A DNA stretch of 64,000 bases from Bacilli bacterium (GCA_050953045.1 JBMNLY010000001.1:156534-220533); one strand, 5' to 3'; shown: positions 11,316 to 41,631, numbered from the stretch's first letter. Notes: generated from the sequence alone by a model not told the origin. Numbers and translations: made by a program.

Positions 11316-12176
11316 ATGGAAAAGGTAGTTGTAAATGATCTTATCAGAATAATGAAGACTGAAAATGTTAAAGTCATTGAAAGACTGATGGGTGGTATGA
11401 GTAATTATACTTATGCCGTTTCCGTAAACGGGAAGAAGTATACTTACCGTATTCCCGGTGAAAATTCAGACTTCTTTGTTGATCGGCTTGAAGAAAGAGA
11501 AAATATTCGTAAAGTTGAAACTTTAGGAATTACCAATAAAACCATTTATTTTAATTTAAAAGACGGATGTAAGCTTGCGGAGTATGTTGAAGGAAACCCG
11601 CTTTCTACGCTTTCAGAATATCCTTACGAGAAAGTAGTAGAAATCTTAAAAATAATCCATAACTCCGGCCTTAAGGCTGCAAACGATTATCAACCTTTCC
11701 AAAGGCTTAAGAATTATGAATTGATTTTAAAAGAACTGGGTTTTGTTCATTCCTTTCATTATTTAAAACTGAGAGCCAGTTTCAATAATTTTAAAACTTA
11801 TTTGGAAGGTCAAGAAAAGGTTTTTACGCATGGTGATGCCCAACCTTCAAATTTTGTTTATGACGGCAAAAATTTAATTGTTGTCGATTTTGAATTTACC
11901 GGAAATAATGATCCGATTTACGATATAGCTTGCTTTGCTAACATTCGTTATGAAGAAGGCTTAAAGTTATTACAAGTCTATTATGAAAACCCTTCGGACG
12001 ATGAAATGAAAAGATTCAATCTTTGGCGTTGTTTCCAATGTTTACAATGGTATAACGTTGCAATGATTAAAGAGAAGAAGGGAATGAGCAAGAGTTTGAA
12101 AATTGATTTCGCAAAAGTTGCAGAAAATTACTTAGAACTTGCAGAAATGCTCTTAAACAAAGTTTTAGATTCCTAG
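11316..12176 (+). CDS. phosphotransferase family kinase (APH/choline-ethanolamine kinase-like)
   Basis: Brenner motif HGDAQPSNFVY and VVDFEF (DFE) catalytic loop; ATG overlaps rdgB stop (TGAATGG). Confidence 0.7.
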   Translation: MEKVVVNDLIRIMKTENVKVIERLMGGMSNYTYAVSVNGKKYTYRIPGENSDFFVDRLEERENIRKVETLGITNKTIYFNLKDGCKLAEYVEGNPLSTLSEYPYEKVVEILKIIHNSGLKAANDYQPFQRLKNYELILKELGFVHSFHYLKLRASFNNFKTYLEGQEKVFTHGDAQPSNFVYDGKNLIVVDFEFTGNNDPIYDIACFANIRYEEGLKLLQVYYENPSDDEMKRFNLWRCFQCLQWYNVAMIKEKKGMSKSLKIDFAKVAENYLELAEMLLNKVLDS

Positions 12177-12211
12177 CAATCCATCCTCTATATTTTCATA
12201 CAGTATCGTAG

Positions 12212-12256
12212 GCAGCCCTTTATTGTTCTTTTTAGAGCGACAAAGGGCTGCTTTTA
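12212..12256 (+). terminator. terminator-like inverted repeat downstream of kinase gene
   Basis: GCAGCCCTTT...AAAGGGCTGC + TTTT. Confidence 0.45.
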
Positions 12257-12341
12257 ATATACAGTTTTTAATATAAATTACTCACAATTATAAATAAAAT
12301 ATGGGACTTAGGAGCAGGTGTGCTTTTTACTTTTTAAAAAA

Positions 12342-29517: not shown

Positions 29518-30242
29518 GACATATGAGTGAAAATAAAAAATTTATCTTAAGCAAAGAACCTTTTATTAGAAAAGCCGACCATAACGAAAATACAACGGTG
29601 ATGATGCGCGATTTTATGATCGCCTTGTTTCCTTTGATTATTTTTGCTTGGGTTAAAAACGGCTTAATTCCATATCTTAACGATGCAACAAATTTCTTCG
29701 GAATGCTTTATCCGCTCCTTTTAGTTTTAGTGGGCGGCCTTTCCGCATTTCTGTTTGAATTTTTATGGTATAAATTTCTTATCAAAAAAGAAGATGTGAA
29801 GATTAGCTTATCTAAGAGCTATCCTTTGATACCGGGAATTCTCCTTGGGATGATCGTTCCCTTAGCAACGCCGTTATGGTTGGTTGTTATCGGTGTCTTC
29901 TTTGCGACGGTAATCGGAAAACTGCTCTTTGGCGGCTTTGGAAACAATATCTTTAACCCCGCCCTTATTGGTTATCTTTTCTTAACTTACGCTTATTTTA
30001 ATGTCATTACCGGAGACAATGCTTTAATCAATGCAAGTGGCTTTTTTAATGCGAAAGAAGTTGCTGATGCTATAACTACTGCCACTCCGATGACTATTTT
30101 CGCAAACGATCGTGCCGGTGCTGTTAACCAAATCCTTAGAAAACTACACTCTTTGGGATATGTTCCTTGGAATGAAACCGGGTTCGCTTGCGGAAACAAG
30201 TGTCTTACTCTGCTTAATTTCCTTAGTATATCTAATTGTTAG
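29514..30242 (+). CDS. rnfD: Rnf subunit D, N-terminal two thirds (frame interrupted around 30112-30142)
   Basis: MRDFMIALFPLIIF..., NqrB/RnfD family; reading frame ends in non-homologous tail while homology continues in +1 frame ORF 30112..31734. Confidence 0.75.
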   Translation: MRHMSENKKFILSKEPFIRKADHNENTTVMMRDFMIALFPLIIFAWVKNGLIPYLNDATNFFGMLYPLLLVLVGGLSAFLFEFLWYKFLIKKEDVKISLSKSYPLIPGILLGMIVPLATPLWLVVIGVFFATVIGKLLFGGFGNNIFNPALIGYLFLTYAYFNVITGDNALINASGFFNAKEVADAITTATPMTIFANDRAGAVNQILRKLHSLGYVPWNETGFACGNKCLTLLNFLSISNC

Positions 30243-31734
30243 AAAAACTATCAATTGGCGCATTCCCGTTATTTATCTTGGAACCGTATTTGTATTAACT
30301 TATATTATCGGTGCTTTTAACGGTTATGCAGGGACTCTAAACTATGCTCTCTTCGGGCTCTTAAACGGTGGTCTCGTGTTCGGGGCTGTCTTTATGGCAA
30401 CTGAACCGGTAACAAGTCCCAGAACTCCGAACGGGAAAATCATCTATGCCTTTGGCTTAGGTGTCTTGACCATTCTTTTCCGCTTCGCTAGCTCGATGCC
30501 TGAAGGTGTTGCTACTTCAATTTTAATTCTGAATATGTTTACAGCTTTAATTGAACGTATTTCCGCAAAACTCCGTGTTGAGCCGAATAAAATTAAAGTT
30601 GCTCTTAATTATGTTGTAATCGGACTTTTATTCTCCGGAATTAGTGTTTTTGCGGTTGTAAAAAATGTTCCGACGGAAATCGTTACTCCTGAGATTGTGG
30701 TAGAAGTGTCTGTTTACGAACAAGATTTTGATACTCTAAACTTTAAATATACATTAACTGTTGACGGCGAAGAAGTGATTGTTGAAACAGATCAAAGTTA
30801 CAAGATTTTAAATATCAGCAATCCTGAATTTAAAGCAAATGAATATAAAGATGCAATTTCAGAAGCTATCAGCAAGAAAAAAATGACGCTTTATATTCTT
30901 GAACATTTAGAAACAGATGATGAAATCATTCTTTATGTTAATACCAAAGGTTTTGCTGTGAATATGACAGCAACTATCACCTTCAACAATGATTTTGAAA
31001 TGACCTCTTATTCGGTTGATACTAGAAATGAATCTTACCAACATTATGGAGATTGGAATGGTAAACATCCTGATGAAGAAGTTCCAAATCAGATTATTGA
31101 AAATCAGACTGATTTAGGCCAAGTTCAGGTTGTAACCGGAGCAACAATTACTTCAAAAGCTTTGGTAGAAGCTGCTCGTTTAGCTTTAGATTATGTTGAA
31201 TATCTTGAAAACCTAACAACAATAAAGCTTGTAAATAGTTATCAAAACTTAGAAAACTTCAATTTTATTTATCTTTTCCGAAATGCTGACGGTAAATTTA
31301 AAGTCGAAGCCGATCAAGATGGCAACCTCTTAACTACGGTAAATGAAGATATTAAAGCTGAAGTAGAAGAAGCGGTTTCCGAAAATCTGCTTGAAGAATA
31401 CATCGTCGGTGCAGGTACTGAAGCAAATAGCATTGTTGTAAAAACAAAAGGCTATGGAAATAATCCTGCTTTAGAATCTACAATCACCTATGATCCTGAT
31501 ACCTTAAAAATTACCGGTTTTAAGACCAATACCGAATCAGAAACATATCAATATAGTCAAAGCTGGACCGGCGAAGAGCCTGGTCAAGTGATGCCGAATC
31601 GGATTGTTACCGGTCAGGATGATTTAGACAATGTTGATACAGTAACCGGTGCTACCGTCACCTCAAAATCTCTTATCAGAGCCGCTAAACTCGCTCTTGA
31701 GTATTTGGCTTACTTAGGAGGCAATAATGAATAG
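30112..31734 (+). CDS. rnfD: RnfD C-terminal third fused in-frame to an RnfG-like module (TM helix + two FMN_bind domains)
   Basis: ..LWDMFLGMKPGSLAETS..EPVTSP..ILILNMF (RnfD C-term) then TM YVVIGLLFSGISVFAVV and two FMN-binding motifs VVTGATITSKA / TVTGATVTSKS. Confidence 0.7.
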   Translation: MPVLLTKSLENYTLWDMFLGMKPGSLAETSVLLCLISLVYLIVRKTINWRIPVIYLGTVFVLTYIIGAFNGYAGTLNYALFGLLNGGLVFGAVFMATEPVTSPRTPNGKIIYAFGLGVLTILFRFASSMPEGVATSILILNMFTALIERISAKLRVEPNKIKVALNYVVIGLLFSGISVFAVVKNVPTEIVTPEIVVEVSVYEQDFDTLNFKYTLTVDGEEVIVETDQSYKILNISNPEFKANEYKDAISEAISKKKMTLYILEHLETDDEIILYVNTKGFAVNMTATITFNNDFEMTSYSVDTRNESYQHYGDWNGKHPDEEVPNQIIENQTDLGQVQVVTGATITSKALVEAARLALDYVEYLENLTTIKLVNSYQNLENFNFIYLFRNADGKFKVEADQDGNLLTTVNEDIKAEVEEAVSENLLEEYIVGAGTEANSIVVKTKGYGNNPALESTITYDPDTLKITGFKTNTESETYQYSQSWTGEEPGQVMPNRIVTGQDDLDNVDTVTGATVTSKSLIRAAKLALEYLAYLGGNNE

Positions 31735-32272
31735 AACTTTAAAATATACATTGTTTTTGCTGATAATGGGTATTGTCGCCGGAGGATTATTAGCGCTTGT
31801 AAATAGTTTTACAGCACCGATAATCGAGGAAAGACAAAGACAAGCTGTTATGGAAGTTTTAGGCGAACATTTCGATTATCAGGATTATTCGCTTGATAAA
31901 GCAAGCGAATATCCAGATCGAGATACTGCCATAATGGCCATCTATTTTGCCCGCAATTCCGAAGGAGAAGTTGCTGCCGTAATTTACCAAACATCTGCTA
32001 AAGGTTATGGAGGTCAGATTGTCTCCTTAATCGGAATCAAAGCTGACGGCAGTTTCGATAATGTTGCGGTTGTGGAAGCTAGCGGCGAGACAAAAGGACT
32101 AGGAACACAGGTGCTTGATTTCGACTTCGGTGTCAACAATGAAAGCGTGAATGATTATTCATATAATTCCATTTCGGGTGCCACCGTTTCATCGGCAGCA
32201 GTACACATCGGAATTGATGTTGCTGCGGCACATTTTAAGAGGCACTTTATAGGAGGAATAACTAATGAATAA
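31727..32272 (+). CDS. rnfG: Rnf subunit G (FMN-binding)
   Basis: N-term TM, SGATVSSAAV flavin-attachment motif. Confidence 0.8.
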   Translation: MNRTLKYTLFLLIMGIVAGGLLALVNSFTAPIIEERQRQAVMEVLGEHFDYQDYSLDKASEYPDRDTAIMAIYFARNSEGEVAAVIYQTSAKGYGGQIVSLIGIKADGSFDNVAVVEASGETKGLGTQVLDFDFGVNNESVNDYSYNSISGATVSSAAVHIGIDVAAAHFKRHFIGGITNE

Positions 32273-32798
32273 TAATAAAAATGAAGTACTCTTAAACGGA
32301 ATTTGGAAAGAAAATCCGGTACTTGTTTCCCTTTTAGGATTATGTTCCGTACTGGCGATTTCACTTACCATTGAAAATGCACTCGGAATGGGCATAGCCT
32401 TCTCATTTGTCTTAATTATGTCGAACGTGATTATCTCATTAATCAGAAACATCGTTCCTAGTGAAATTCGGATTCCTGTCTACATTGTCGTCGTTGCAAC
32501 TTTGGTTGTAATTGTCGAAATGTTAATGGCGGCATTTCTTCCCGCTCTTTATGAAAGTTTAGGAATATTCATTCCTTTGATTGTTGTTAACTGTATCATC
32601 TTAGGAAGAGCCGAAGCTTTTGCTTCCAAAAACGACGTTTTTGATTCGTTCTTAGATGCGATTGGCATGTCACTCGGATATACGATCGTTCTCATTGTTC
32701 TTTCTATGGTCAGAGAGTTTTTCGCTTCTGGAAATATTACAATCTGGGGAAATCTGCAACTTTCCCTTCCTGAAAAAGTGAAAGAAATCTTTTGCTGA
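32265..32798 (+). CDS. rnfE: Rnf subunit E, frameshifted near 32790 (true C-terminus continues in +1 frame to 32907)
   Basis: RnfE/NqrD pattern; +1 frame after T4 run encodes ..FFTDFFVKPPSAFILLGVFIGVANIINNSLKGAKK and ends TAATG overlapping rnfA start. Confidence 0.75.
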   Translation: MNNNKNEVLLNGIWKENPVLVSLLGLCSVLAISLTIENALGMGIAFSFVLIMSNVIISLIRNIVPSEIRIPVYIVVVATLVVIVEMLMAAFLPALYESLGIFIPLIVVNCIILGRAEAFASKNDVFDSFLDAIGMSLGYTIVLIVLSMVREFFASGNITIWGNLQLSLPEKVKEIFC

Positions 32799-32906
32799 TT
32801 TCTTCACCGATTTCTTTGTTAAACCACCTTCAGCATTTATCTTGCTCGGTGTCTTTATCGGTGTTGCTAATATTATAAATAATTCTTTGAAAGGAGCTAA
32901 GAAATA

Positions 32907-33485
32907 ATGGGTGAACTCATAACTTTAGCTTTTACTGCTATCGTCATTGAAAATGTTTTGTTAGCAAGATTCTTAGGGGTTTGCCCGTTCTTAGGCGTCT
33001 CGAAGAAACGTGATTCCGCGGTTGGAATGGGACTCGCAGTTATCTTTGTTATTACTCTTTCCAGCGTTGTCGCTTGGCTCCTTTATACTTATATTCTTGT
33101 TCCTTTTAAGATGGTTTACATGCGGACGATTATCTTCATTCTCGTAATCGCATCCCTTGTACAAATGATTGAAATGTTTATTAAGAAGATTTCACCGGCG
33201 CTCTATCGTTCGCTCGGAATTTATCTCCCGCTGATTACGACCAACTGTGCGGTTTTGGGTATGGCGACTCTTGTAGCCGATCCCTCCTACACATTTTTAA
33301 CCGCTTTAATCTTCTCGTTTGCTTCAGCGGTAGGCTTCTTATTCGTAATCTATCTATTTTCAACAATTAGGGAAAAGATTGCCCGTGGTGATGTTCCGAA
33401 AGCTTTCCAAGGCGTACCGATTGCTTTGATTACTGCCGGAATTATGGCGATGATCTTTTCTAGATTTGGAGTGTTGAATTTATGA
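32907..33485 (+). CDS. rnfA: Rnf subunit A
   Basis: 192 aa, MGELITLAFTAIVIENVLLARFLGVCPFLGVSKK. Confidence 0.85.
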   Translation: MGELITLAFTAIVIENVLLARFLGVCPFLGVSKKRDSAVGMGLAVIFVITLSSVVAWLLYTYILVPFKMVYMRTIIFILVIASLVQMIEMFIKKISPALYRSLGIYLPLITTNCAVLGMATLVADPSYTFLTALIFSFASAVGFLFVIYLFSTIREKIARGDVPKAFQGVPIALITAGIMAMIFSRFGVLNL

Positions 33486-33781
33486 TCTTAAATGTTTTCC
33501 AAACATATTTCTTGCCCGCAATCGTTCTTGCGGGTACAGGCGCCATTTTCGGTCTTTTGATCGGCGTTTTTTCCAAAATTTTTGCAGTCGAAGTTGACGA
33601 GAGACTTTCACAATTAATCGAAATGCTTCCCGGTTATAATTGCGGTGCTTGCGGTTATCCCGGTTGTGCCGGTATGGCTGAGGGTCTTTCGAAAGGTGAA
33701 GTTGAAGTAGCTTCATGCAAACCCGCAAAAGAAGAAGTTCGTGATAAAATTAGACAATTTTTGAAAGAAAATTACAATTAG
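33482..33781 (+). CDS. rnfB: Rnf subunit B, short form: TM + N-terminal Fe-S domain only, no ferredoxin-like domains
   Basis: CGACGYPGCAG...C four-Cys cluster motif; ORF stops at 99 aa; no downstream coding remnant. Confidence 0.65.
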   Translation: MILNVFQTYFLPAIVLAGTGAIFGLLIGVFSKIFAVEVDERLSQLIEMLPGYNCGACGYPGCAGMAEGLSKGEVEVASCKPAKEEVRDKIRQFLKENYN

Positions 33782-33807
33782 TAAAACATTTACATTTTAA
33801 AAGATGA

Positions 33808-33836
33808 TTGTATAATTAAAGCCTATATGGTATAAT
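33808..33836 (+). promoter_or_regulatory. promoter of the pre-insertion lipoprotein gene (TTGTAT -17- TGgTATAAT)
   Basis: followed by RBS AAGGAGGA and ATG 33875 now separated from its ORF by the transposon. Confidence 0.4.
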
Positions 33837-33876
33837 ACTTATGTCTTAAGTAATATTAAGGAGGAAAAGACGACAT

Positions 33877-33884
33877 GTTAAAAA
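33877..33884 (+). repeat. 8-bp target site duplication GTTAAAAA (left)
   Basis: identical 8-mer abuts the outer end of each IS copy; second at 38577..38584. Confidence 0.75.
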
Positions 33885-33979
33885 GATTAAGCCCTTATAA
33901 TTGTGTAAAAAGAAAATGAGCCACAAACTCATATCCTCGGTTAGAATATAAGTGACAAACAAATACCAAACCGAGGAGG

Positions 33980-35197
33980 ATGAAATCCATGGCTCAGTTT
34001 AATATTACCCTAACCGAAGAAGAATTGCACGGACTTTTTATAAGCAACGGACGAGATGTAGCCGTAGCAAAATTGCTAGAAAAGATCTTTAATGAGATCC
34101 TTCGAGGCCAGTCCACTGAACAGCTATGTGCTGAACCGTATGAGAGAACCGATCAGCGAAGAGCATACCGTAATGGCAGCTATAAGCGTGAACTGGTGAC
34201 CCGGGTTGGAACACTGACCTTACGCATTCCTCGCCACCGAAACGGCGAATTCAGCACCGAACTTTTTGAACGTTATCAGCGGAGCGAACAGGCACTGGTG
34301 CTGGCCATGATGGAAATGGTGGTTAATGGTGTCTCTACTCGGAAAGTAGAAACCATCACCGAAGAACTCTGTGGCAAGAAGTTTTCTAAATCAACCGTTT
34401 CAGCTCTTTGTCAGAAATTGGACCCGCTGGTTCATGACTTTCGAACAAGACCGCTGGAAAGCCACTATCCGTTTTTGATAGTCGATGCCCTTTATCTCAA
34501 AGCGCGCATTAATAACAGGGTACAATCCAGAGGCTTACTTGTCGCTATCGGTGTCAACGAAAAAGGAAATCGGGAAGTTATCGGCTTTCAAGTGGCCAAT
34601 AGCGAATCGGAAAGCAGCTGGAGCGATTTTTTTGAATCATTAAAAGAGCGAGGGCTGAAGGATGTGCACCTGGTGACTTCCGACAACCATAAAGGCCTGG
34701 TGAATGCCATTCAGAAACAATTCCAGGGAACCACTTGGCAAAGGTGTCAAACCCACTTTTCAAGGAACATGATTGATCAGACACCCAAATCGCTGCAGGT
34801 CGAAATGAAGGAAGATCTGCGCCGACTTTACGAAGCCGTAGACCTGGAAAGCGCCAAAGGTGTCCGGGATCAGATTATTGCCACATATGAATCCAAAGCG
34901 CCTAGAGCAACATCCTTACTGGATGAAGCCTTTGACGATATTACCGCCGTTTTAATCATGCCACTCAAATACCGCAAAAGACTGCGTACAACCAATGGGG
35001 TAGAACGGCTTAACCAGGAAATCCGGCGTCGTGAACGGGTTATACGTATTTTCCCTAACGAGGCATCAGTGATCCGGCTCATGGGTGCCCTGCTGATGGA
35101 ACAAAGCGAAAAATGGCAGACAGGGTGTAAATACTTTGAGATGGATCTGTATTACCAGGCTATGAAAAAAGATTCAAAAGATACGTTTGCTGCTTAG
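33980..35197 (+). CDS. IS256-family (MULE) transposase; probable true start ATG 33989
   Basis: YPFLIVDALYLKAR, WQRCQTHFSRN, RTTNGVERLNQEIRRRERV signature blocks. Confidence 0.85.
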   Translation: MKSMAQFNITLTEEELHGLFISNGRDVAVAKLLEKIFNEILRGQSTEQLCAEPYERTDQRRAYRNGSYKRELVTRVGTLTLRIPRHRNGEFSTELFERYQRSEQALVLAMMEMVVNGVSTRKVETITEELCGKKFSKSTVSALCQKLDPLVHDFRTRPLESHYPFLIVDALYLKARINNRVQSRGLLVAIGVNEKGNREVIGFQVANSESESSWSDFFESLKERGLKDVHLVTSDNHKGLVNAIQKQFQGTTWQRCQTHFSRNMIDQTPKSLQVEMKEDLRRLYEAVDLESAKGVRDQIIATYESKAPRATSLLDEAFDDITAVLIMPLKYRKRLRTTNGVERLNQEIRRRERVIRIFPNEASVIRLMGALLMEQSEKWQTGCKYFEMDLYYQAMKKDSKDTFAA

Positions 35198-35217
35198 AGT
35201 CGCATTTATTCCACGGT

Positions 35218-35401
35218 CCTGGTTGACAGTGAGCCTCTAGCCGCATGGCTTCTGGCACCACAGGCAGCCCCCTGTTCACAACTGCCTACCTGGTCCTAAT
35301 GGGTGATTTAAAGCTGCCGAGTATTGCCATAAAGGTTGTCCCGTGTTTGGGTGCTGCCAGGCTTTTAGCCTACCATGCGGCCTCTCACTGTTCAACCAGG
35401 C
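35218..35401 (+). other. GC-rich structured segment inside IS 3' region (long-range stem CCTGGTTGACAGTGAG...CTCACTGTTCAACCAGG, inner stem GCCGCATGG/CCATGCGGC); candidate IS-borne RNA element
   Basis: 314-bp non-coding tail after transposase stop, nested inverted repeats. Confidence 0.35.
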
Positions 35402-35505
35402 TTTCGCGGCATAAAAGCTCACGGTTTGTGATACTGAAAAAGTGAGCAGCCTTAACAACAAACTGATTAAAGTGTTACCGAGGAAATTTACACACTAATT
35501 GGGAC

Positions 35506-35534
35506 TTGACTTTGTAACGTTTGCATATTATCAT
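35506..35534 (+). promoter_or_regulatory. possible hybrid promoter: outward -35 TTGACT at IS end + flank -10 TATCAT (17-nt spacer) directed at SDR gene
   Basis: IS256 ends are known to create hybrid promoters; geometry fits. Confidence 0.35.
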
Positions 35535-35621
35535 ATTATTACAGTATTTGATTCGTGTGTTAACCAAATAGCGGAAATGTTAAACGAAAAGAAAGAGGTG
35601 ATGTGTAAGTAGAAACACCTG

Positions 35622-36059
35622 AAAGATAAAAATTTAGAAAGGTGGAATCTATAATGGGTAAATTAGATGGCAAAGTAGTAGTAGTGACAGGTTCAGTTTC
35701 AGCGATTCCTGGTTTTGACTCTATCGGTTCGGCAACAGTTCGTGAAGCATTGGCTGAAGGAGCAAAAAAAGATAAAAATTTAGAAAGGTGGAATCTATAA
35801 TGGGTAAATTAGATGGCAAAGTAGTAGTAGTGACAGGTTCAGTTTCAGCGATTCCTGGTTTTGACTCTATCGGTTCGGCAACAGTTCGTGAAGCATTGGC
35901 TGAAGGAGCAAAAAAAGATAAAAATTTAGAAAGGTGGAATCTATAATGGGTAAATTAGATGGCAAAGTAGTAGTAGTGACAGGTTCAGTTTCAGCGATTC
36001 CTGGTTTTGACTCTATCGGTTCGGCAACAGTTCGTGAAGCATTGGCTGAAGGAGCAAAA
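35622..36059 (+). repeat. tandem triplication (3 x 146 bp) of SDR gene leader + RBS + first 37 codons
   Basis: ATGs at 35654, 35800, 35946 each preceded by GGTGGAATCTATA; upstream minigenes end ..ERWNL TAA overlapping next ATG (TAATG). Confidence 0.9.
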
Positions 36060-36875
36060 GGGGTAGTTGTGTCCGACATTAACGACAAATTGGGTGAAGC
36101 TTTTGTTAAGGAATTAAATGAGAAATACGGTGAAGGACACGCAACTTTTGTTCACACTGACGTATCTAAACCTGAAGATGTTGAAAAATTATTTGAAACT
36201 ACAGAAAAGGTTTATGGAACTGTAGATGCAATAATGGCTAATGCCGGCGTGGTAACTGCAGAAGATGTCGATAAAGATCCGGAAGAAGTCTTGAAATCTC
36301 GTAAATTTATTCAAAGCATCAATGAAGATGGAGTATTCTATACAGCATTATATGGTTCTCGTTTAATGATCAAAAAAGGAACAAAAGGTTCAATCGTAAT
36401 GGTTTCCAGTATTCATGGTGTTGCAGGTCGTCCTAAAGTTGTAAATCAGGAAACAGGCGATGTTTTAATTGAGCGTTTCAATTTACTTCAATATACAATG
36501 GGTAAACATGGCGTAGTTGGTTTATCAAAAGCATTAGCCCTGCAATTAGCAGATTATGGTATACGCGTAAATACTGTAAATCCAGGTTATATTATGACAC
36601 CATTATTCCAAGCAGCTGTAGCTGCCGATAAAAACGATCTGGCAGATAAAGATTCATTGACAACAGAAGCATTTGACTTTGCTCAATTAGCAGCATTACA
36701 CCCATTATGCAATGACCCTGTAAAAGATAAAGATATCGTTCCTCGCGGCAAATTCGGCGGCCGGATGGGGGTTCCTGCTGAAATTGCTAAGCCTGCGGTA
36801 TTCTTAATGTCAGATGAAGCATCCTTTGTGACAGGTCAAAAATTAGTAATTGATGGGGGTTATACTGCAAGCTAA
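35946..36875 (+). CDS. short-chain dehydrogenase/reductase (SDR) family oxidoreductase, transposon passenger
   Basis: YTMGK (YxxxK), NTVNPGYIMTPL, atypical Gly-rich N-term TGSVSAIPGFDSIGSA; ORF-track start 35934 is an upstream GTG. Confidence 0.75.
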   Translation: MGKLDGKVVVVTGSVSAIPGFDSIGSATVREALAEGAKGVVVSDINDKLGEAFVKELNEKYGEGHATFVHTDVSKPEDVEKLFETTEKVYGTVDAIMANAGVVTAEDVDKDPEEVLKSRKFIQSINEDGVFYTALYGSRLMIKKGTKGSIVMVSSIHGVAGRPKVVNQETGDVLIERFNLLQYTMGKHGVVGLSKALALQLADYGIRVNTVNPGYIMTPLFQAAVAADKNDLADKDSLTTEAFDFAQLAALHPLCNDPVKDKDIVPRGKFGGRMGVPAEIAKPAVFLMSDEASFVTGQKLVIDGGYTAS

Positions 36876-36949
36876 AAGCAACCTAATAATCACTAAACCG
36901 TGTAAATGGAATAATGATCTAAAAATCTAGTTAGGGGCTGCTGAAAAAC

Positions 36950-38576
36950 GATTAAGCCCTTATAATTGTGTAAAAAGAAAATGAGCCACAAACTCATATC
37001 CTCGGTTAGAATATAAGTGACAAACAAATACCAAACCGAGGAGGATGAAATCCATGGCTCAGTTTAATATTACCCTAACCGAAGAAGAATTGCACGGACT
37101 TTTTATAAGCAACGGACGAGATGTAGCCGTAGCAAAATTGCTAGAAAAGATCTTTAATGAGATCCTTCGAGGCCAGTCCACTGAACAGCTATGTGCTGAA
37201 CCGTATGAGAGAACCGATCAGCGAAGAGCATACCGTAATGGCAGCTATAAGCGTGAACTGGTGACCCGGGTTGGAACACTGACCTTACGCATTCCTCGCC
37301 ACCGAAACGGCGAATTCAGCACCGAACTTTTTGAACGTTATCAGCGGAGCGAACAGGCACTGGTGCTGGCCATGATGGAAATGGTGGTTAATGGTGTCTC
37401 TACTCGGAAAGTAGAAACCATCACCGAAGAACTCTGTGGCAAGAAGTTTTCTAAATCAACCGTTTCAGCTCTTTGTCAGAAATTGGACCCGCTGGTTCAT
37501 GACTTTCGAACAAGACCGCTGGAAAGCCACTATCCGTTTTTGATAGTCGATGCCCTTTATCTCAAAGCGCGCATTAATAACAGGGTACAATCCAGAGGCT
37601 TACTTGTCGCTATCGGTGTCAACGAAAAAGGAAATCGGGAAGTTATCGGCTTTCAAGTGGCCAATAGCGAATCGGAAAGCAGCTGGAGCGATTTTTTTGA
37701 ATCATTAAAAGAGCGAGGGCTGAAGGATGTGCACCTGGTGACTTCCGACAACCATAAAGGCCTGGTGAATGCCATTCAGAAACAATTCCAGGGAACCACT
37801 TGGCAAAGGTGTCAAACCCACTTTTCAAGGAACATGATTGATCAGACACCCAAATCGCTGCAGGTCGAAATGAAGGAAGATCTGCGCCGACTTTACGAAG
37901 CCGTAGACCTGGAAAGCGCCAAAGGTGTCCGGGATCAGATTATTGCCACATATGAATCCAAAGCGCCTAGAGCAACATCCTTACTGGATGAAGCCTTTGA
38001 CGATATTACCGCCGTTTTAATCATGCCACTCAAATACCGCAAAAGACTGCGTACAACCAATGGGGTAGAACGGCTTAACCAGGAAATCCGGCGTCGTGAA
38101 CGGGTTATACGTATTTTCCCTAACGAGGCATCAGTGATCCGGCTCATGGGTGCCCTGCTGATGGAACAAAGCGAAAAATGGCAGACAGGGTGTAAATACT
38201 TTGAGATGGATCTGTATTACCAGGCTATGAAAAAAGATTCAAAAGATACGTTTGCTGCTTAGAGTCGCATTTATTCCACGGTCCTGGTTGACAGTGAGCC
38301 TCTAGCCGCATGGCTTCTGGCACCACAGGCAGCCCCCTGTTCACAACTGCCTACCTGGTCCTAATGGGTGATTTAAAGCTGCCGAGTATTGCCATAAAGG
38401 TTGTCCCGTGTTTGGGTGCTGCCAGGCTTTTAGCCTACCATGCGGCCTCTCACTGTTCAACCAGGCTTTCGCGGCATAAAAGCTCACGGTTTGTGATACT
38501 GAAAAAGTGAGCAGCCTTAACAACAAACTGATTAAAGTGTTACCGAGGAAATTTACACACTAATTGGGACTTGACT
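36950..38576 (+). mobile_element. IS256-family insertion sequence, copy 2 (identical to copy 1)
   Basis: identical sequence and ORF content. Confidence 0.8.
37045..38262 (+). CDS. IS256-family transposase (copy 2)
   Basis: identical to 33980..35197. Confidence 0.85.
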   Translation: MKSMAQFNITLTEEELHGLFISNGRDVAVAKLLEKIFNEILRGQSTEQLCAEPYERTDQRRAYRNGSYKRELVTRVGTLTLRIPRHRNGEFSTELFERYQRSEQALVLAMMEMVVNGVSTRKVETITEELCGKKFSKSTVSALCQKLDPLVHDFRTRPLESHYPFLIVDALYLKARINNRVQSRGLLVAIGVNEKGNREVIGFQVANSESESSWSDFFESLKERGLKDVHLVTSDNHKGLVNAIQKQFQGTTWQRCQTHFSRNMIDQTPKSLQVEMKEDLRRLYEAVDLESAKGVRDQIIATYESKAPRATSLLDEAFDDITAVLIMPLKYRKRLRTTNGVERLNQEIRRRERVIRIFPNEASVIRLMGALLMEQSEKWQTGCKYFEMDLYYQAMKKDSKDTFAA

Positions 38577-38584
38577 GTTAAAAA
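38577..38584 (+). repeat. 8-bp target site duplication GTTAAAAA (right)
   Basis: see 33877..33884. Confidence 0.75.
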
Positions 38585-38586
38585 GA

Positions 38587-39510
38587 ATGTTAATGGTTTT
38601 AGTAGCCGTATTTAGTCTCTTTGCTCTTACAGCTTGTGGAGAAAGAACTTATAAGGCTGACGGTGTTTATGCAGCATTTGCTGAAAGCACAAATTATGGA
38701 GCTCCTCAAATTACAGTTGTAACTGTCACAATTAAAAATGACAAGATTGAAAGCTTCTATATTGATTGCTTACAATCTACAGCTGTAAAAAATGAGGAAG
38801 ATGTTGTAACCGGTTATAATTTTAACGAAAAAACTAAAAAAGAATTACGTTATGATTACCGTATGCACGGACCGGGTATGGATGAAGAAGAATATTTAGA
38901 TTATCTTGAAGAAAATAACAAACTTGAATGGTTTGAACAAGCAGAACTTCTTGAAGCTTATTTCAAAGAAAACGGCACAGATTTAACTGTTGACAAAGAT
39001 GGCTATATTCAAAACGTTTCTGGTGTTTCCATTGTCGATAGCGATTATTCAAAATTAGCTAAAAAAGCAGTTGAAAATGCGAAAGCCGGAAAAGTTTATA
39101 GCTGGGTTGCAACAGGTGGCTCAACTACTAGTCTGATTTGGGCTGAAGGTACAGTTGATAAGAATGGCAAATTAACCAGCCTGAAACTTGATACTCGCCA
39201 AGGAAGAATAACCGACGGTACATTTGCTTGGGATGAAGAAACCAAACAAGAAAAGGGTTATGATTATCGTATGCATGGACCAGGCATGGAAGAAGAAGCA
39301 TATTTAGATTATCTTGAAGAAAATAACAAACTTGAATGGTTTGAACAAGCAGATCTCTTAGCTGCTTATGTTCTTGAAAACGGCTTGGCGAATGTAAAAT
39401 ATGATGATAACGGCAAACTTGATAATGCACCGGAAGCAATCGCTGAGGTCTCAGTTACCGTTAACCATTATGTAAAAGTTATGAAAGATTTAGTAGATAA
39501 CTGGAAATAA
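38587..39510 (+). CDS. lipoprotein with internal ~50-aa duplication; 5' end (first 4 codons, RBS, promoter) severed by transposon
   Basis: lipobox LFALTAC; repeat YDYRMHGPGM(D/E)EEEYLDYLEENNKLEWFEQA twice; residual ORF lacks SD and positively charged n-region. Confidence 0.7.
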   Translation: MLMVLVAVFSLFALTACGERTYKADGVYAAFAESTNYGAPQITVVTVTIKNDKIESFYIDCLQSTAVKNEEDVVTGYNFNEKTKKELRYDYRMHGPGMDEEEYLDYLEENNKLEWFEQAELLEAYFKENGTDLTVDKDGYIQNVSGVSIVDSDYSKLAKKAVENAKAGKVYSWVATGGSTTSLIWAEGTVDKNGKLTSLKLDTRQGRITDGTFAWDEETKQEKGYDYRMHGPGMEEEAYLDYLEENNKLEWFEQADLLAAYVLENGLANVKYDDNGKLDNAPEAIAEVSVTVNHYVKVMKDLVDNWK

Positions 39511-39520
39511 GAAAAATAAA

Positions 39521-39552
39521 TTGAGCGTTGTCCTTTCAACGCTCAATTTTCT
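39521..39552 (+). terminator. rho-independent terminator
   Basis: TTGAGCGTTGTCCTTTCAACGCTCAA + TTTTCTT. Confidence 0.6.
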
Positions 39553-39609
39553 TGTGTAATTCATTAGAAATCGTATATTAGCAGCTGAATTAATCAATAC
39601 TAAATTAGG

Positions 39610-40134
39610 GTGATTAAGATCAATAAAGCTGAAAACAGATACTTTCTTAAAGAAGTATTAATTAAATCGATGATTATCGGAATCAGTTTTTACTTTTTTC
39701 GGAGTCTAGTGCTTAGCAGTAATTCCAGATTTATTTCAATCGTCTTTAGGAATCCGAACAGTCTTTTCTCTTTATATAAATTCTTTTTTCTTGCAGTTAC
39801 GGTTTTGGTGATTGGAGAATACTTGATTATGTTTAAACTTCCGCCAAATTTCTTACTTTCCCGAGTTATCGGTTTAGTTGTTATGTTTCTTTTAACAACC
39901 ATTCTTTATAGCGGTTATTATTTTAGTTTTGGAGCAAGAATCCGCACCGCCTTTCTTTTGTTAACGACGGGAATTGCGATTATTTTCGGGCAAATTATTT
40001 CTTACCGGGTTCAAAAAAGGAAAAACTTAAGGTGGGGTCATTCATTAGGGTTCTTTAACTATTTTTTGATTGCAACAGTTTTGATGGGGCTTTCCCTTGC
40101 CAAGTTGGAAGGGTTTATTTTTCTAGACTCGTAG
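39610..40134 (+). CDS. hypothetical multi-pass membrane protein (GTG start; may be spurious in T-rich DNA)
   Basis: Phe/Leu-rich ORF, four hydrophobic stretches. Confidence 0.3.
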   Translation: MIKINKAENRYFLKEVLIKSMIIGISFYFFRSLVLSSNSRFISIVFRNPNSLFSLYKFFFLAVTVLVIGEYLIMFKLPPNFLLSRVIGLVVMFLLTTILYSGYYFSFGARIRTAFLLLTTGIAIIFGQIISYRVQKRKNLRWGHSLGFFNYFLIATVLMGLSLAKLEGFIFLDS

Positions 40135-40255
40135 GAGTCTTTTTTCAACTTTTATTGAAAAACCAGTTCTAATTAGATCAAGATATTTTTCTTTACAAAG
40201 AATCTAAATTATGTTAATATTAATAGAAAGTAGATATCAAGAGGAGTGTTTTTAG

Positions 40256-41631
40256 TGGAAAAAATCACGATGGAAAAGCTTGTTGCTTATTTAAAGCAAT
40301 ATGGCTTTGTTTATCAAGGAAGTGAAATTTACGGCGGCCTCGCAAACTCATGGGATTTTGGTCCGATGGGCGTCGAACTTAAGAATAATATTAAAAAAGC
40401 TTGGTGGAAGAAATTTATTCAAGAATCTCCCTATAATGTCGGTATCGATTCCGCAATTCTTATGAACCCAAAGGTTTGGGTTGCAAGCGGTCATGTCGGT
40501 AGTTTCTCCGACCCCTTAACCGATTGTAAAGAATGCGGTGTTCGTTATCGAGCGGACAAGCTGGTTGAAGAGCACACGCAGGGCGAAGTAACTGGCGACG
40601 GCATGACTAATGAAGAATTAATCGATTTTATCAGAAAAGAAAATGTTAAATGCCCGAGTTGCGGAAAAAGCGACTTTACGGATATCAGAAAATTCAATTT
40701 AATGTTTAAGACTAATCAAGGTGTAATTGATGATGAAAAGAACACCGTTTATTTGCGTCCGGAAACCGCCCAAGGCATCTTTGTGAATTTTAAAAATGTT
40801 CAAAGAAGTTCAAGGAAGAAGCTTCCTTTTGGAATCGGTCAAATCGGAAAGAGTTTTCGTAATGAAATCACGCCTGGAAACTTTATTTTTAGGACCCGTG
40901 AATTTGAACAAATGGAAATGCAATTCTTCTGCAAACCCGGAACTGATTTAGAATGGTTTGCTTATTGGAAAGAGTTCTGCAGGGATTTTCTAAATTATTT
41001 AGGTCTTTCCGAAGATAATCTTCGCTATCGCGACCATAGCGCCAAAGAACTATCCTTTTATTCGAAAGCGACAACCGATATCGAATATTTATTTCCATTC
41101 GGTTGGGGTGAATTATGGGGGATAGCTGACAGAACCGATTATGACCTTCGCGTTCATCAAGAACACTCCGGGGAAAATATGGAATATTTTGATCCTGATG
41201 ACAATACGCGTTATTTTCCGTTTGTCATTGAACCTTCAGTCGGTGTTGAACGCTTGCTGCTTGCGGTTTTGGCGGAAAGTTTAGAAAGAGAAGAACTCGC
41301 CGACGGTGAGTGTCGCGATCTTTTACGCTTGAAGCCCTACCTTGCACCGATTAAGGTTGCTGTTCTTCCCTTAGTCAATAAACTAACAGACAAAGCCCTT
41401 GAAGTTTATGGAGATTTGCGGAAAGAATTCATGTGTGAATTTGATACCAGCGGCAAAATTGGAAAAAGATATCGCCGTCAGGATGCTATCGGTACACCTT
41501 TCTGCGTCACAATTGATTACGATACTTTAGAAGACGAAAGCGTAACCGTCCGTGAACGCGATAGTATGGCCCAAGAAAGAATACCGATCAGAGAACTTGC
41601 TGACTATATCAATCAAAAAATAAAAGGATAG
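40256..41631 (+). CDS. glyQS: glycine--tRNA ligase (class II homodimeric GlyQS type); start GTG 40256 or ATG 40273
   Basis: [40 protein letters not shown]; anticodon-binding C-term. Confidence 0.85.

Follow-up and report, generated by a model that had tools for sequence, protein, structure and literature searches.

Tn4001 of staphylococci and enterococci is a compound transposon of about 4.7 kb in which two inverted copies of IS256 enclose aacA-aphD; it makes an 8-bp target duplication and carries outward promoter elements in the ends of its insertion sequences (ISs). Here we describe a composite of the same type, in which two copies of an IS256-family element enclose a gene for a short-chain dehydrogenase/reductase (SDR), in a 64,000-nucleotide stretch of DNA deposited under Bacilli bacterium (GCA_050953045.1, JBMNLY010000001.1:156534-220533; this whole stretch is the window, and positions are counted from its first letter). 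The unit resembles Tn4001 in being a compound transposon of about 4.7 kb, with two IS256-family copies around a single gene, an 8-bp duplication and predicted outward promoter elements in the IS ends, but its IS is a distant member of the family (1627 bp vs. 1324 bp for IS256) with an extra structured module at its 3' end. Further, its copies are direct, its cargo is an uncharacterised SDR rather than an established resistance gene, and its hosts are uncultured anaerobes (Acholeplasmataceae, Clostridia). The composite is thus of a kind already known, built from a new IS256-family member.

The nearest described relative in terms of the IS itself is ISCth4 of Clostridium thermocellum, which has imperfect terminal inverted repeats (TIRs) with a subterminal TGTAAA and makes 8-bp duplications, and for IS256 both hybrid promoters and circles have been documented (PMC7780238). 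Our element shares with ISCth4 a single Mutator-type DDE transposase, the imperfect TIRs with TGTAAA and the 8-bp duplications, as well as a -35-like hexamer in the right TIR (R-TIR) and a -10-like hexamer in the left (L-TIR), which would form a promoter at a circle junction; it differs in length (ISCth4 has 1503 bp) and in being known from sequence alone. With regard to cargo, the closest parallel is offered by TnSha1 and TnSha2, in which sh-fabI was mobilised by IS1272 and spread between species, apparently under selection (PMC4923244). There, as here, one gene for a metabolic oxidoreductase of the SDR superfamily has been picked up by an IS and spread by it; however, IS1272 makes no target duplication, the cargo is FabI, with a Y-x6-K motif instead of the Y-x3-K found here, and the selective agent is known, FabI being the triclosan target, whereas none is known for our unit. 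Finally, direct IS copies, solo and composite forms at one site and passenger-IS-passenger permutations recall the translocatable units and pseudo-compound transposons of the IS26 type, and all of them would be expected from exchange of an IS+passenger unit. The transposase here, however, belongs to the IS256 family and not to IS6; any exchange of units would rely on homologous recombination by the host.

A composite unit and its empty site

Extension of exact repeats delimited two 1627-bp segments, 100% identical and in direct orientation, on either side of a 1438-bp passenger (Table 1), and no third copy of the IS occurs within the window (0 expected by chance). The 8-mer GTTAAAAA abuts both outer edges of the IS pair, while the inner flanks, TTGTAACG on the left and TGAAAAAC on the right, are mutually unrelated; at the base composition of the window, the chance of an 8-mer match is about 2.7e-5. 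It is therefore the whole unit, and not either IS copy, that the duplication bounds. All this had been claimed in an earlier reading of the sequence (the original prediction), which proved correct to the base for the two copies and the passenger, and likewise right about the matching outer 8-mers and the unrelated inner ones. Its GC contents of about 50% for the IS and about 42% for the passenger were overstated, the measured values being 46.4% and 37.9%, respectively, with 39.1% for the SDR coding sequence and 36.5% for the window. Hence, its argument from GC to foreign origin holds for the IS, which is compositionally foreign, but not for the passenger, whose composition gives no such sign and which we regard as foreign because the empty site lacks it.

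This empty site is present in five contigs of the same species (L012, GCA_012841865.1; L013, JGI 3300002898; L015, L016 and L018). They read GACGACATGTTAAAAAGAATGTTAATGG, in which GTTAAAAA occurs once, have a gene call of 311 aa, and are equal to the product of excising positions 33885..38584 in silico. As the original prediction had proposed, this excision restores a gene start: it joins the Shine-Dalgarno sequence (SD) AAGGAGGA, a 9-nt spacer and ATG TTA AAA AGA ATG TTA ATG into an open reading frame (ORF) of 311 aa that starts MLKRMLMVLVAVFSLFALTAC. Over 8.3 kb, L012 and the excised window share 99.4% identity. Furthermore, in contigs with an identical RnfB, rnfB is followed 94 nt downstream by the 311-aa gene, with no SDR in between; the case that the same prediction had named as speaking against an insertion, namely related genomes in which the lipoprotein gene is never contiguous with the start next to rnfB, is answered by these five contiguous sites. 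One contig from a Logan assembly (L014), the sample of which may or may not be that of the window, contains the occupied left junction only. A protein identical to the RnfB of the window bears that name in an Acholeplasmataceae bacterium, and by the source names of this identical protein the host is an Acholeplasmataceae bacterium.

Table 1. Features of the composite unit and of its target locus, with window positions
Feature	Position	Strand	Basis
rnfB, 99 aa, closing the rnf cluster and preceding the target gene	33482..33781	+	PF04060 FeS
Orphaned lipoprotein 5' end (SD AAGGAGGA 33858-65, ATG 33875-77, first codons)	33858..33884	+	Sequence, translation; identical to empty sites
Target-site duplication, left copy, GTTAAAAA	33877..33884	.	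Sequence; single in empty sites
IS copy 1, IS256 family, 1627 bp (L-TIR 33885-~33909, R-TIR ~35487-35511)	33885..35511	+	Repeat extension
Transposase, 402 aa from ATG 33989 (GGAGG 9 nt upstream)	33989..35197	+	PF00872, NF033543
Conserved structured element, IS 3' tail (repeated in copy 2 at 38263-38488)	35198..35423	+	Folding, covariation
Hybrid promoter-like site TTGACT-17-TATCAT, reading toward the SDR	35506..35534	+	Prediction, score 10/12
Passenger, 1438 bp	35512..36949	+	Identical inner junctions in other assemblies
Exact 146-bp tandem repeat, x3	35622..36059	+	Sequence
SDR gene, 309 aa from ATG 35946	35946..36875	+	PF00106/PF13561, PDB alignment, AlphaFold2 (AF2), Foldseek
IS copy 2, equal to copy 1 (transposase 37054-38262)	36950..38576	+	Repeat extension
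Target-site duplication, right copy, GTTAAAAA	38577..38584	.	Sequence
Decapitated lipoprotein remainder, lipobox LTAC kept	38577..39510	+	Sequence

The unit recurs elsewhere. Within the collection, 120 blocks list the identical 309-aa SDR, among them a record for a metagenome-assembled genome (MAG) named Saccharofermentanales, and many metagenome contigs encode the identical transposase. The inner junctions of the passenger are the same in L003/4, L087/8, L089, L093, L095, L097 and L098. In L087 (a 710-kb JGI contig), L088 (GCA_050951905.1) and L093, IS-SDR-IS lies inside an element with serine recombinases, and in L087, where both ends are visible, the composite is bounded by the 8-bp duplication CATTCTTA, with no duplication at the inner flanks. 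In L003/L004 and L006/L007 it interrupts the type I restriction gene hsdM; L003 has no duplication, and its right flank is that of L007 minus 861 bp beside the IS, a pattern that fits an IS-adjacent deletion. L089, L096 and L098 add further right flanks, each distinct. In all, the unit was found with at least seven different right flanks; in three of the cases its two ends can both be seen, with a duplication in two of them and the adjacent 861-bp deletion in the third. Since the GC content of the flanks elsewhere spans 31-47% (36% in the window) and one record is named Saccharofermentanales, the unit is present in several hosts. Keeping in mind that IS-SDR-IS with the same inner junctions is found at other sites in hosts of higher GC, once with an 8-bp duplication of its own, we conclude that the 4.7-kb unit is a genuine mobile composite transposon, and a recent one.

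Solo copies of the IS, 100% identical, occur in other contexts (L002, L005 and L008-L011), and that in L005 has its own duplication, CATTCTTA. The solo-IS flanks in L002, L009, L010 and L011 pair as duplications only between contigs (e.g. GCCAATCAC, ATTCTATG), a pattern that either IS-mediated rearrangements or cross-joins by the assembler would give. At about position 2541 of L092, an ISL3-family element interrupts the right IS copy, 14 bp into its L-TIR. A megablast search of the phage collection with the whole unit gave no match, a scan of IMG/VR for the inner junction found none, and the same scan of metagenomes found two loci only, L097 and L098.

For the target gene, insertion of the unit very probably means a null allele, because it cuts the gene from its promoter, SD and ATG. 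The orphaned start and three codons now run into the IS as a 14-aa peptide (MLKRLSPYNCVKRK, followed by a stop codon), and the remainder has no start codon, SD or promoter: its first in-frame ATG, at 38587, is without an SD, and the promoter scan gave no promoter-like site spanning the right IS end. Polar effects on glyS are unlikely, since a strong terminator-like hairpin (39518-39549) follows the 3' end of the lipoprotein gene. No family in Pfam or NCBIfam matched the lipoprotein. It contains an internal duplication (38827-38976 and 39235-39384; 408-bp spacing, 84% DNA identity; YDYRMHGPGM.EEEYLDYLEENNKLEWFEQA). The rnf cluster upstream (30112-33781) is itself unusual in that RnfB has only 99 aa and an FeS domain only; the RnfG-like gene is preceded by one for a 540-aa protein with an FMN_bind domain at its end, PF04205 having been seen on the homologous fragment of L012.

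The insertion sequence and its structured tail

The longest transposase ORF starts at 33980 and would encode 405 aa; the likely product has 402 aa, and this is also the length called by NCBI. The protein matches PF00872 (Transposase_mut) over residues 14-381 with an E-value of 4e-129 and the NCBIfam model NF033543 (transpos_IS256) with 392.5 bits at a cut-off of 150, in agreement with the IS256-like identity originally proposed. Identity with IS6 was rejected, the IS6 model reaching 32 bits vs. a cut-off of 125. The TIRs are imperfect, with 16 of the first 25 bp matching, and have a subterminal TGTAAA (as GTGTAAA) in both ends. Duplications of the 8-9 bp characteristic of the IS256 family are present as GTTAAAAA in the window and as CATTCTTA in L005 and L087. 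The R-TIR ends in TTGACT and the L-TIR reads GATTAAGCCCT-TATAAT; a circle with a 6-bp spacer is predicted to form a junction promoter, TTGACT-N17-TATAAT. The relatives in the plasmid collection are only 60-80% identical at the DNA level and bear the annotation IS256 family transposase.

A tail of 314 nt (49% GC) separates the transposase stop from the R-TIR; it folds with a minimum free energy of -112.5 kcal/mol (z = -3.6). We compared it with the tails of relatives from digester MAGs (L027-L077; 61-99% transposase identity). The relatives keep invariant flanking strings, GCAUUUAUUCCACGG ... CUUUCGCGGCAUAAA, in an element of about 160-230 nt, and in the long stem between them sequence varies with complementarity kept, while the distal domain ranges from 59 to 127 nt. 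When 18-25 relatives were folded singly, one common architecture with at least 31 stacked pairs emerged: P1, which is invariant; the long stem P2, which covaries; an internal loop reading GCCUCU; P3, again with covariation; and a distal domain that varies. In RNAalifold, 12 of 26 pairs showed compensatory double changes when the distal domain was swapped for a GAAA linker, and 6 of 19 showed compensatory changes with full-length sequences. A conserved G-U pair favours the sense strand. Nearly all relatives with at least 73% transposase identity have the module, and most of those at or below 60% are without it and have tails of about 75 nt.

A 66-aa ORF in the tail (35245-35445) was rejected as a gene, having no Pfam match and spanning the variable distal domain. 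Searched against Rfam, positions 33000-40500 gave no match at E<=1; for the tail alone at E<=10, the best match was Guanidine-I, with 16.9 bits vs. a gathering threshold of 63 and on the opposite strand, so that no credible family emerged. A literature search for an IS256-associated RNA likewise found nothing. The tail may be a new IS-associated RNA.

The SDR cargo and its 5' region

The passenger gene had been called an SDR, and this is well supported by its Pfam matches and by alignment to the structures 5x8h and 1zjy, which places the motifs YTMGK (Y-x3-K) and NPGYIxTP; the catalytic residues N126, S155, Y183 and K187 are invariant in 48 homologues. The AF2 model, with the Rossmann fold of classical SDRs, has a predicted local distance difference test score (pLDDT) of 82.7, and Foldseek aligns it to SDR structures with a TM score of 0.9. 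The neighbours found in this way are generic classical SDRs of the NAD(H) type acting on secondary alcohols or ketones (BacC, ChKRED20, nepetalactol-related SDRs and 17beta-HSD14). Compared with generic SDRs, the protein has three insertions: 6 aa in the glycine motif (TGSVSAIPGFDSIG), about 15 aa between the catalytic Ser and Tyr, and about 38 aa in the C-terminal substrate loop, the last modelled with low confidence. Its clade is tight, with members of about 309 aa and 82-95% identity, after which identity drops to about 38% vs. generic SDRs of 250 aa. By the usual SDR rule, an Asp that ends strand beta-2, here in VVVSD, is a sign of NAD(H), and the protein is a classical SDR, probably an NAD(H)-dependent oxidoreductase of secondary alcohols or ketones. 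We would tentatively give it a catabolic or detoxifying role as an alcohol/carbonyl oxidoreductase, with a substrate that is probably hydrophobic. Identity with FabI, and hence a link to triclosan, was rejected, as the protein has Y-x3-K and not Y-x6-K, and no FabI model is among the top NCBIfam matches, all of which are below cut-off.

PADLOC gave no match to the SDR, with close homologues sitting in defence-island-like regions, and no conserved neighbours were found around the homologues. A conserved divergent regulator was considered and dropped, since the upstream ORFs of 160 aa in L019 and 158 aa in L026 are unrelated and look spurious. Nor was a native donor locus found, the nearest alleles (94.6%, 83% and 70%) being homologous in the coding region only. 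An 83% homologue is at 11380-12288 of a 23.4-kb conjugative MOBP plasmid (L099, NZ_CP101746.1) of Comamonas sp. C11 from a wastewater treatment plant, in an accessory region between small recombinase genes.

The 5' part of the gene is amplified in the window; this triplication, the hybrid promoter-like site and the structured tail of the IS had all gone unnoticed in the original prediction. The 146-bp repeat unit consists of 32 nt of 5' untranslated region, including the SD AAAGGTGG, and the first 38 codons of the SDR, and because 146 is not a multiple of 3, copies 1 and 2 encode upstream ORFs (uORFs) of 48 aa (35654-35800 and 35800-35946), each ending in TAATG over the next start codon. Such stop/start overlaps are classically tied to termination-reinitiation coupling. 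Inspection by eye showed the microhomology AAAG common to the unit boundaries. One copy of the 146-bp unit is present in L001, L087/8, L090 and L093, two in L003/4, L006, L095 and L097, and three in the window and in L089. Position 1-73 of L089, at a contig end where a chimera is possible, shows the left IS cut to a 24-nt R-TIR remnant that keeps TTGACT. The ends of the passenger do not fit GTTRRRY core sites (judged by eye only), and an integron-cassette reading of them was set aside.

Upstream of the repeat, the promoter-like site is a hybrid: the terminal 6 bp of the left IS, TTGACT, would serve as -35, and a -10, TATCAT, follows in the passenger after a spacer of 17 nt. Small indels at this junction alter the promoter spacer, and the 146-bp copy number tracks the spacer variant: junction TTGTAAAAGCG has a spacer of 20 nt and one copy, TTGTAAGCG one of 18 nt and also one copy, and TTGTAACG one of 17 nt and two or three copies. 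In L094 (1359-1387), by comparison, an IS21-like element with IstB upstream ends in TTGACA, 17 nt before the same TATCAT (score 11/12), an apparent case of convergent promoter capture. This contig retains a 3' hairpin after the SDR that IS256 insertion truncated in the composite, and it may be close to the state before capture. Because two types of IS provide a -35 to the same -10, and because the spacer has apparently been optimised stepwise, these predicted promoters suggest selection for expression of the SDR. The idea of the original prediction that the SDR is a selected cargo is strengthened by the distribution of the cargo and by its promoter and 5' variants; to us, too, it looks like selected cargo.

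Arrival of the unit and its significance

How the unit reached its present site can be accounted for most simply by transposition of all 4.7 kb as one piece, which we hold to be the probable course of events, although not with great assurance. The composite would have inserted into codons 1-4 of the chromosomal lipoprotein gene just downstream of rnfB, its DDE (Mutator-type) transposase having taken the two outermost TIRs, L-TIR of the left copy and R-TIR of the right, for the ends of one element. By analogy with the family, it would have moved by copy-out/paste-in via a circular intermediate, with staggered integration making the 8-bp duplication GTTAAAAA. Once there, the hybrid promoter is predicted to drive the SDR from the -35 in the left IS terminus and the -10 in the passenger, and the triplicated repeat would add two ribosome-loading sites, with the uORFs probably coupling translation into the SDR. 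The SDR behaves like a cargo under positive selection, and it is spreading among unrelated anaerobes, by transposition as well as by homologous recombination between IS copies or SDR alleles. The claim that the unit moved as one piece thus stands as the simplest reading, and IS256-type integration at GTTAAAAA is proven, but integration of 4.7 kb in a single step is not.

Several observations weigh against this account or parts of it. At the CATTCTTA site, a solo IS (L005) and the composite (L087/L088/L093) were found in different samples, and because the solo IS of L005 and the composite of L087 share site and duplication, an outer duplication does not prove a single step. The left flanks of L005 and L087/L088 are 99.98% identical and their right flanks differ by about 4%; decay of the composite to a solo IS and gain of SDR-IS by a solo IS through recombination both fit. 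In L097 (1-5868), a resident SDR allele, 94.6% identical to the cargo and in a native context 99.8% identical to L020 and L023, is joined just past its stop codon to the 72-nt passenger tail of the composite, followed by the IS and a second passenger; this is a product of homologous recombination between resident and incoming SDR. With 1627 bp, the IS exceeds the range of about 1.2-1.5 kb of the IS256 family, the excess arising from the structured module of about 225 nt between transposase stop and R-TIR. The promoter scan returned 15 sites vs. 12.1 in shuffled sequence, i.e. no enrichment, and the promoter, the coupling through uORFs and the enzyme activity of the SDR are all predictions. Lastly, although 213 SDR models of NCBIfam match the SDR, none does so at cut-off, equivalogs included, so that neither a name nor a substrate can be given.

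Conceivably, a solo IS was first inserted at GTTAAAAA, and the SDR with the second IS was added later by homologous recombination with a circular IS+SDR or with another composite. The solo IS of L005, at the exact site and duplication of the composite in L087/L088/L093, speaks for this course, as do the permuted passenger-IS-passenger contigs (L091, L095, L097), the resident-allele junction of L097 and the 1.6 kb of perfect direct repeat, a good substrate for recombination. However, no solo IS was found at the site of the window, where L014 shows the left junction only, the solo IS of L005 is equally explained by loss of the passenger between direct copies, and the permuted contigs are possibly assembly walks through the repeat. 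It would moreover take two events per site at two sites, where transposition of the unit needs one, and we consider it distinctly the less probable course, if one to be taken seriously.

That the structure is an artefact of assembly, with a chimeric join through the repeated IS and a mis-resolved 146-bp triplication, might be argued from the source of the window, which appears to be a MAG, and from the unpaired flanks of L002, L009, L010 and L011, which look like cross-joins. Yet a chimera would not give a perfect 8-bp duplication that restores, to the base, the empty site of five assemblies; the left junction recurs in the separate Logan assembly L014, and assemblies from JGI, ENA and NCBI again show the inner junctions and the x2/x3 repeat, which makes an artefact very improbable. 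Even less can be said for two independent IS insertions around an SDR native to the locus. The host-like GC of the passenger (38%) would agree with it, and nothing further does; neither IS has a duplication of its own (GTTAAAAA/TTGTAACG and TGAAAAAC/GTTAAAAA), and the empty sites, where rnfB is directly joined to the lipoprotein gene without the SDR, refute it, leaving a chance that is close to nil. Transposition of the unit as one piece is accordingly the reading that we prefer.

While the structure itself is textbook, the locus is an unusually clean natural case, for which public assemblies yield the occupied, the empty, the solo-IS, the deleted and the recombinant state, and it documents genes passing between Mollicutes-like Acholeplasmataceae and Clostridia in engineered anaerobic systems. 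On a single SDR, many signs of selection come together: identical copies in many assemblies, links to several types of IS, captured promoters, an amplified 5' end and a homologue on a plasmid. The gene appears to have been recruited through promoter capture by no fewer than two IS families, with TTGACT from the IS256 type and TTGACA from the IS21 type placed before the same predicted -10, and its expression looks tuned stepwise through the length of the promoter spacer (20, 18 or 17 nt) and the copy number of the 5' repeat (1, 2 or 3). In our reading, the SDR is carried across phyla, including the 83% homologue on the Comamonas conjugative plasmid. Tentatively, the SDR could be a determinant of resistance or detoxification that has so far escaped recognition and is selected throughout the microbial communities of wastewater and anaerobic digesters, and/or the tail a functional IS-encoded RNA that aids or controls transposition, although we hold this combined proposal to be rather doubtful. 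The SDR is, in any case, a well-defined subject for functional screens with biocides or process chemicals, and the structured module of the IS, absent from Rfam, may represent a new IS-associated RNA.

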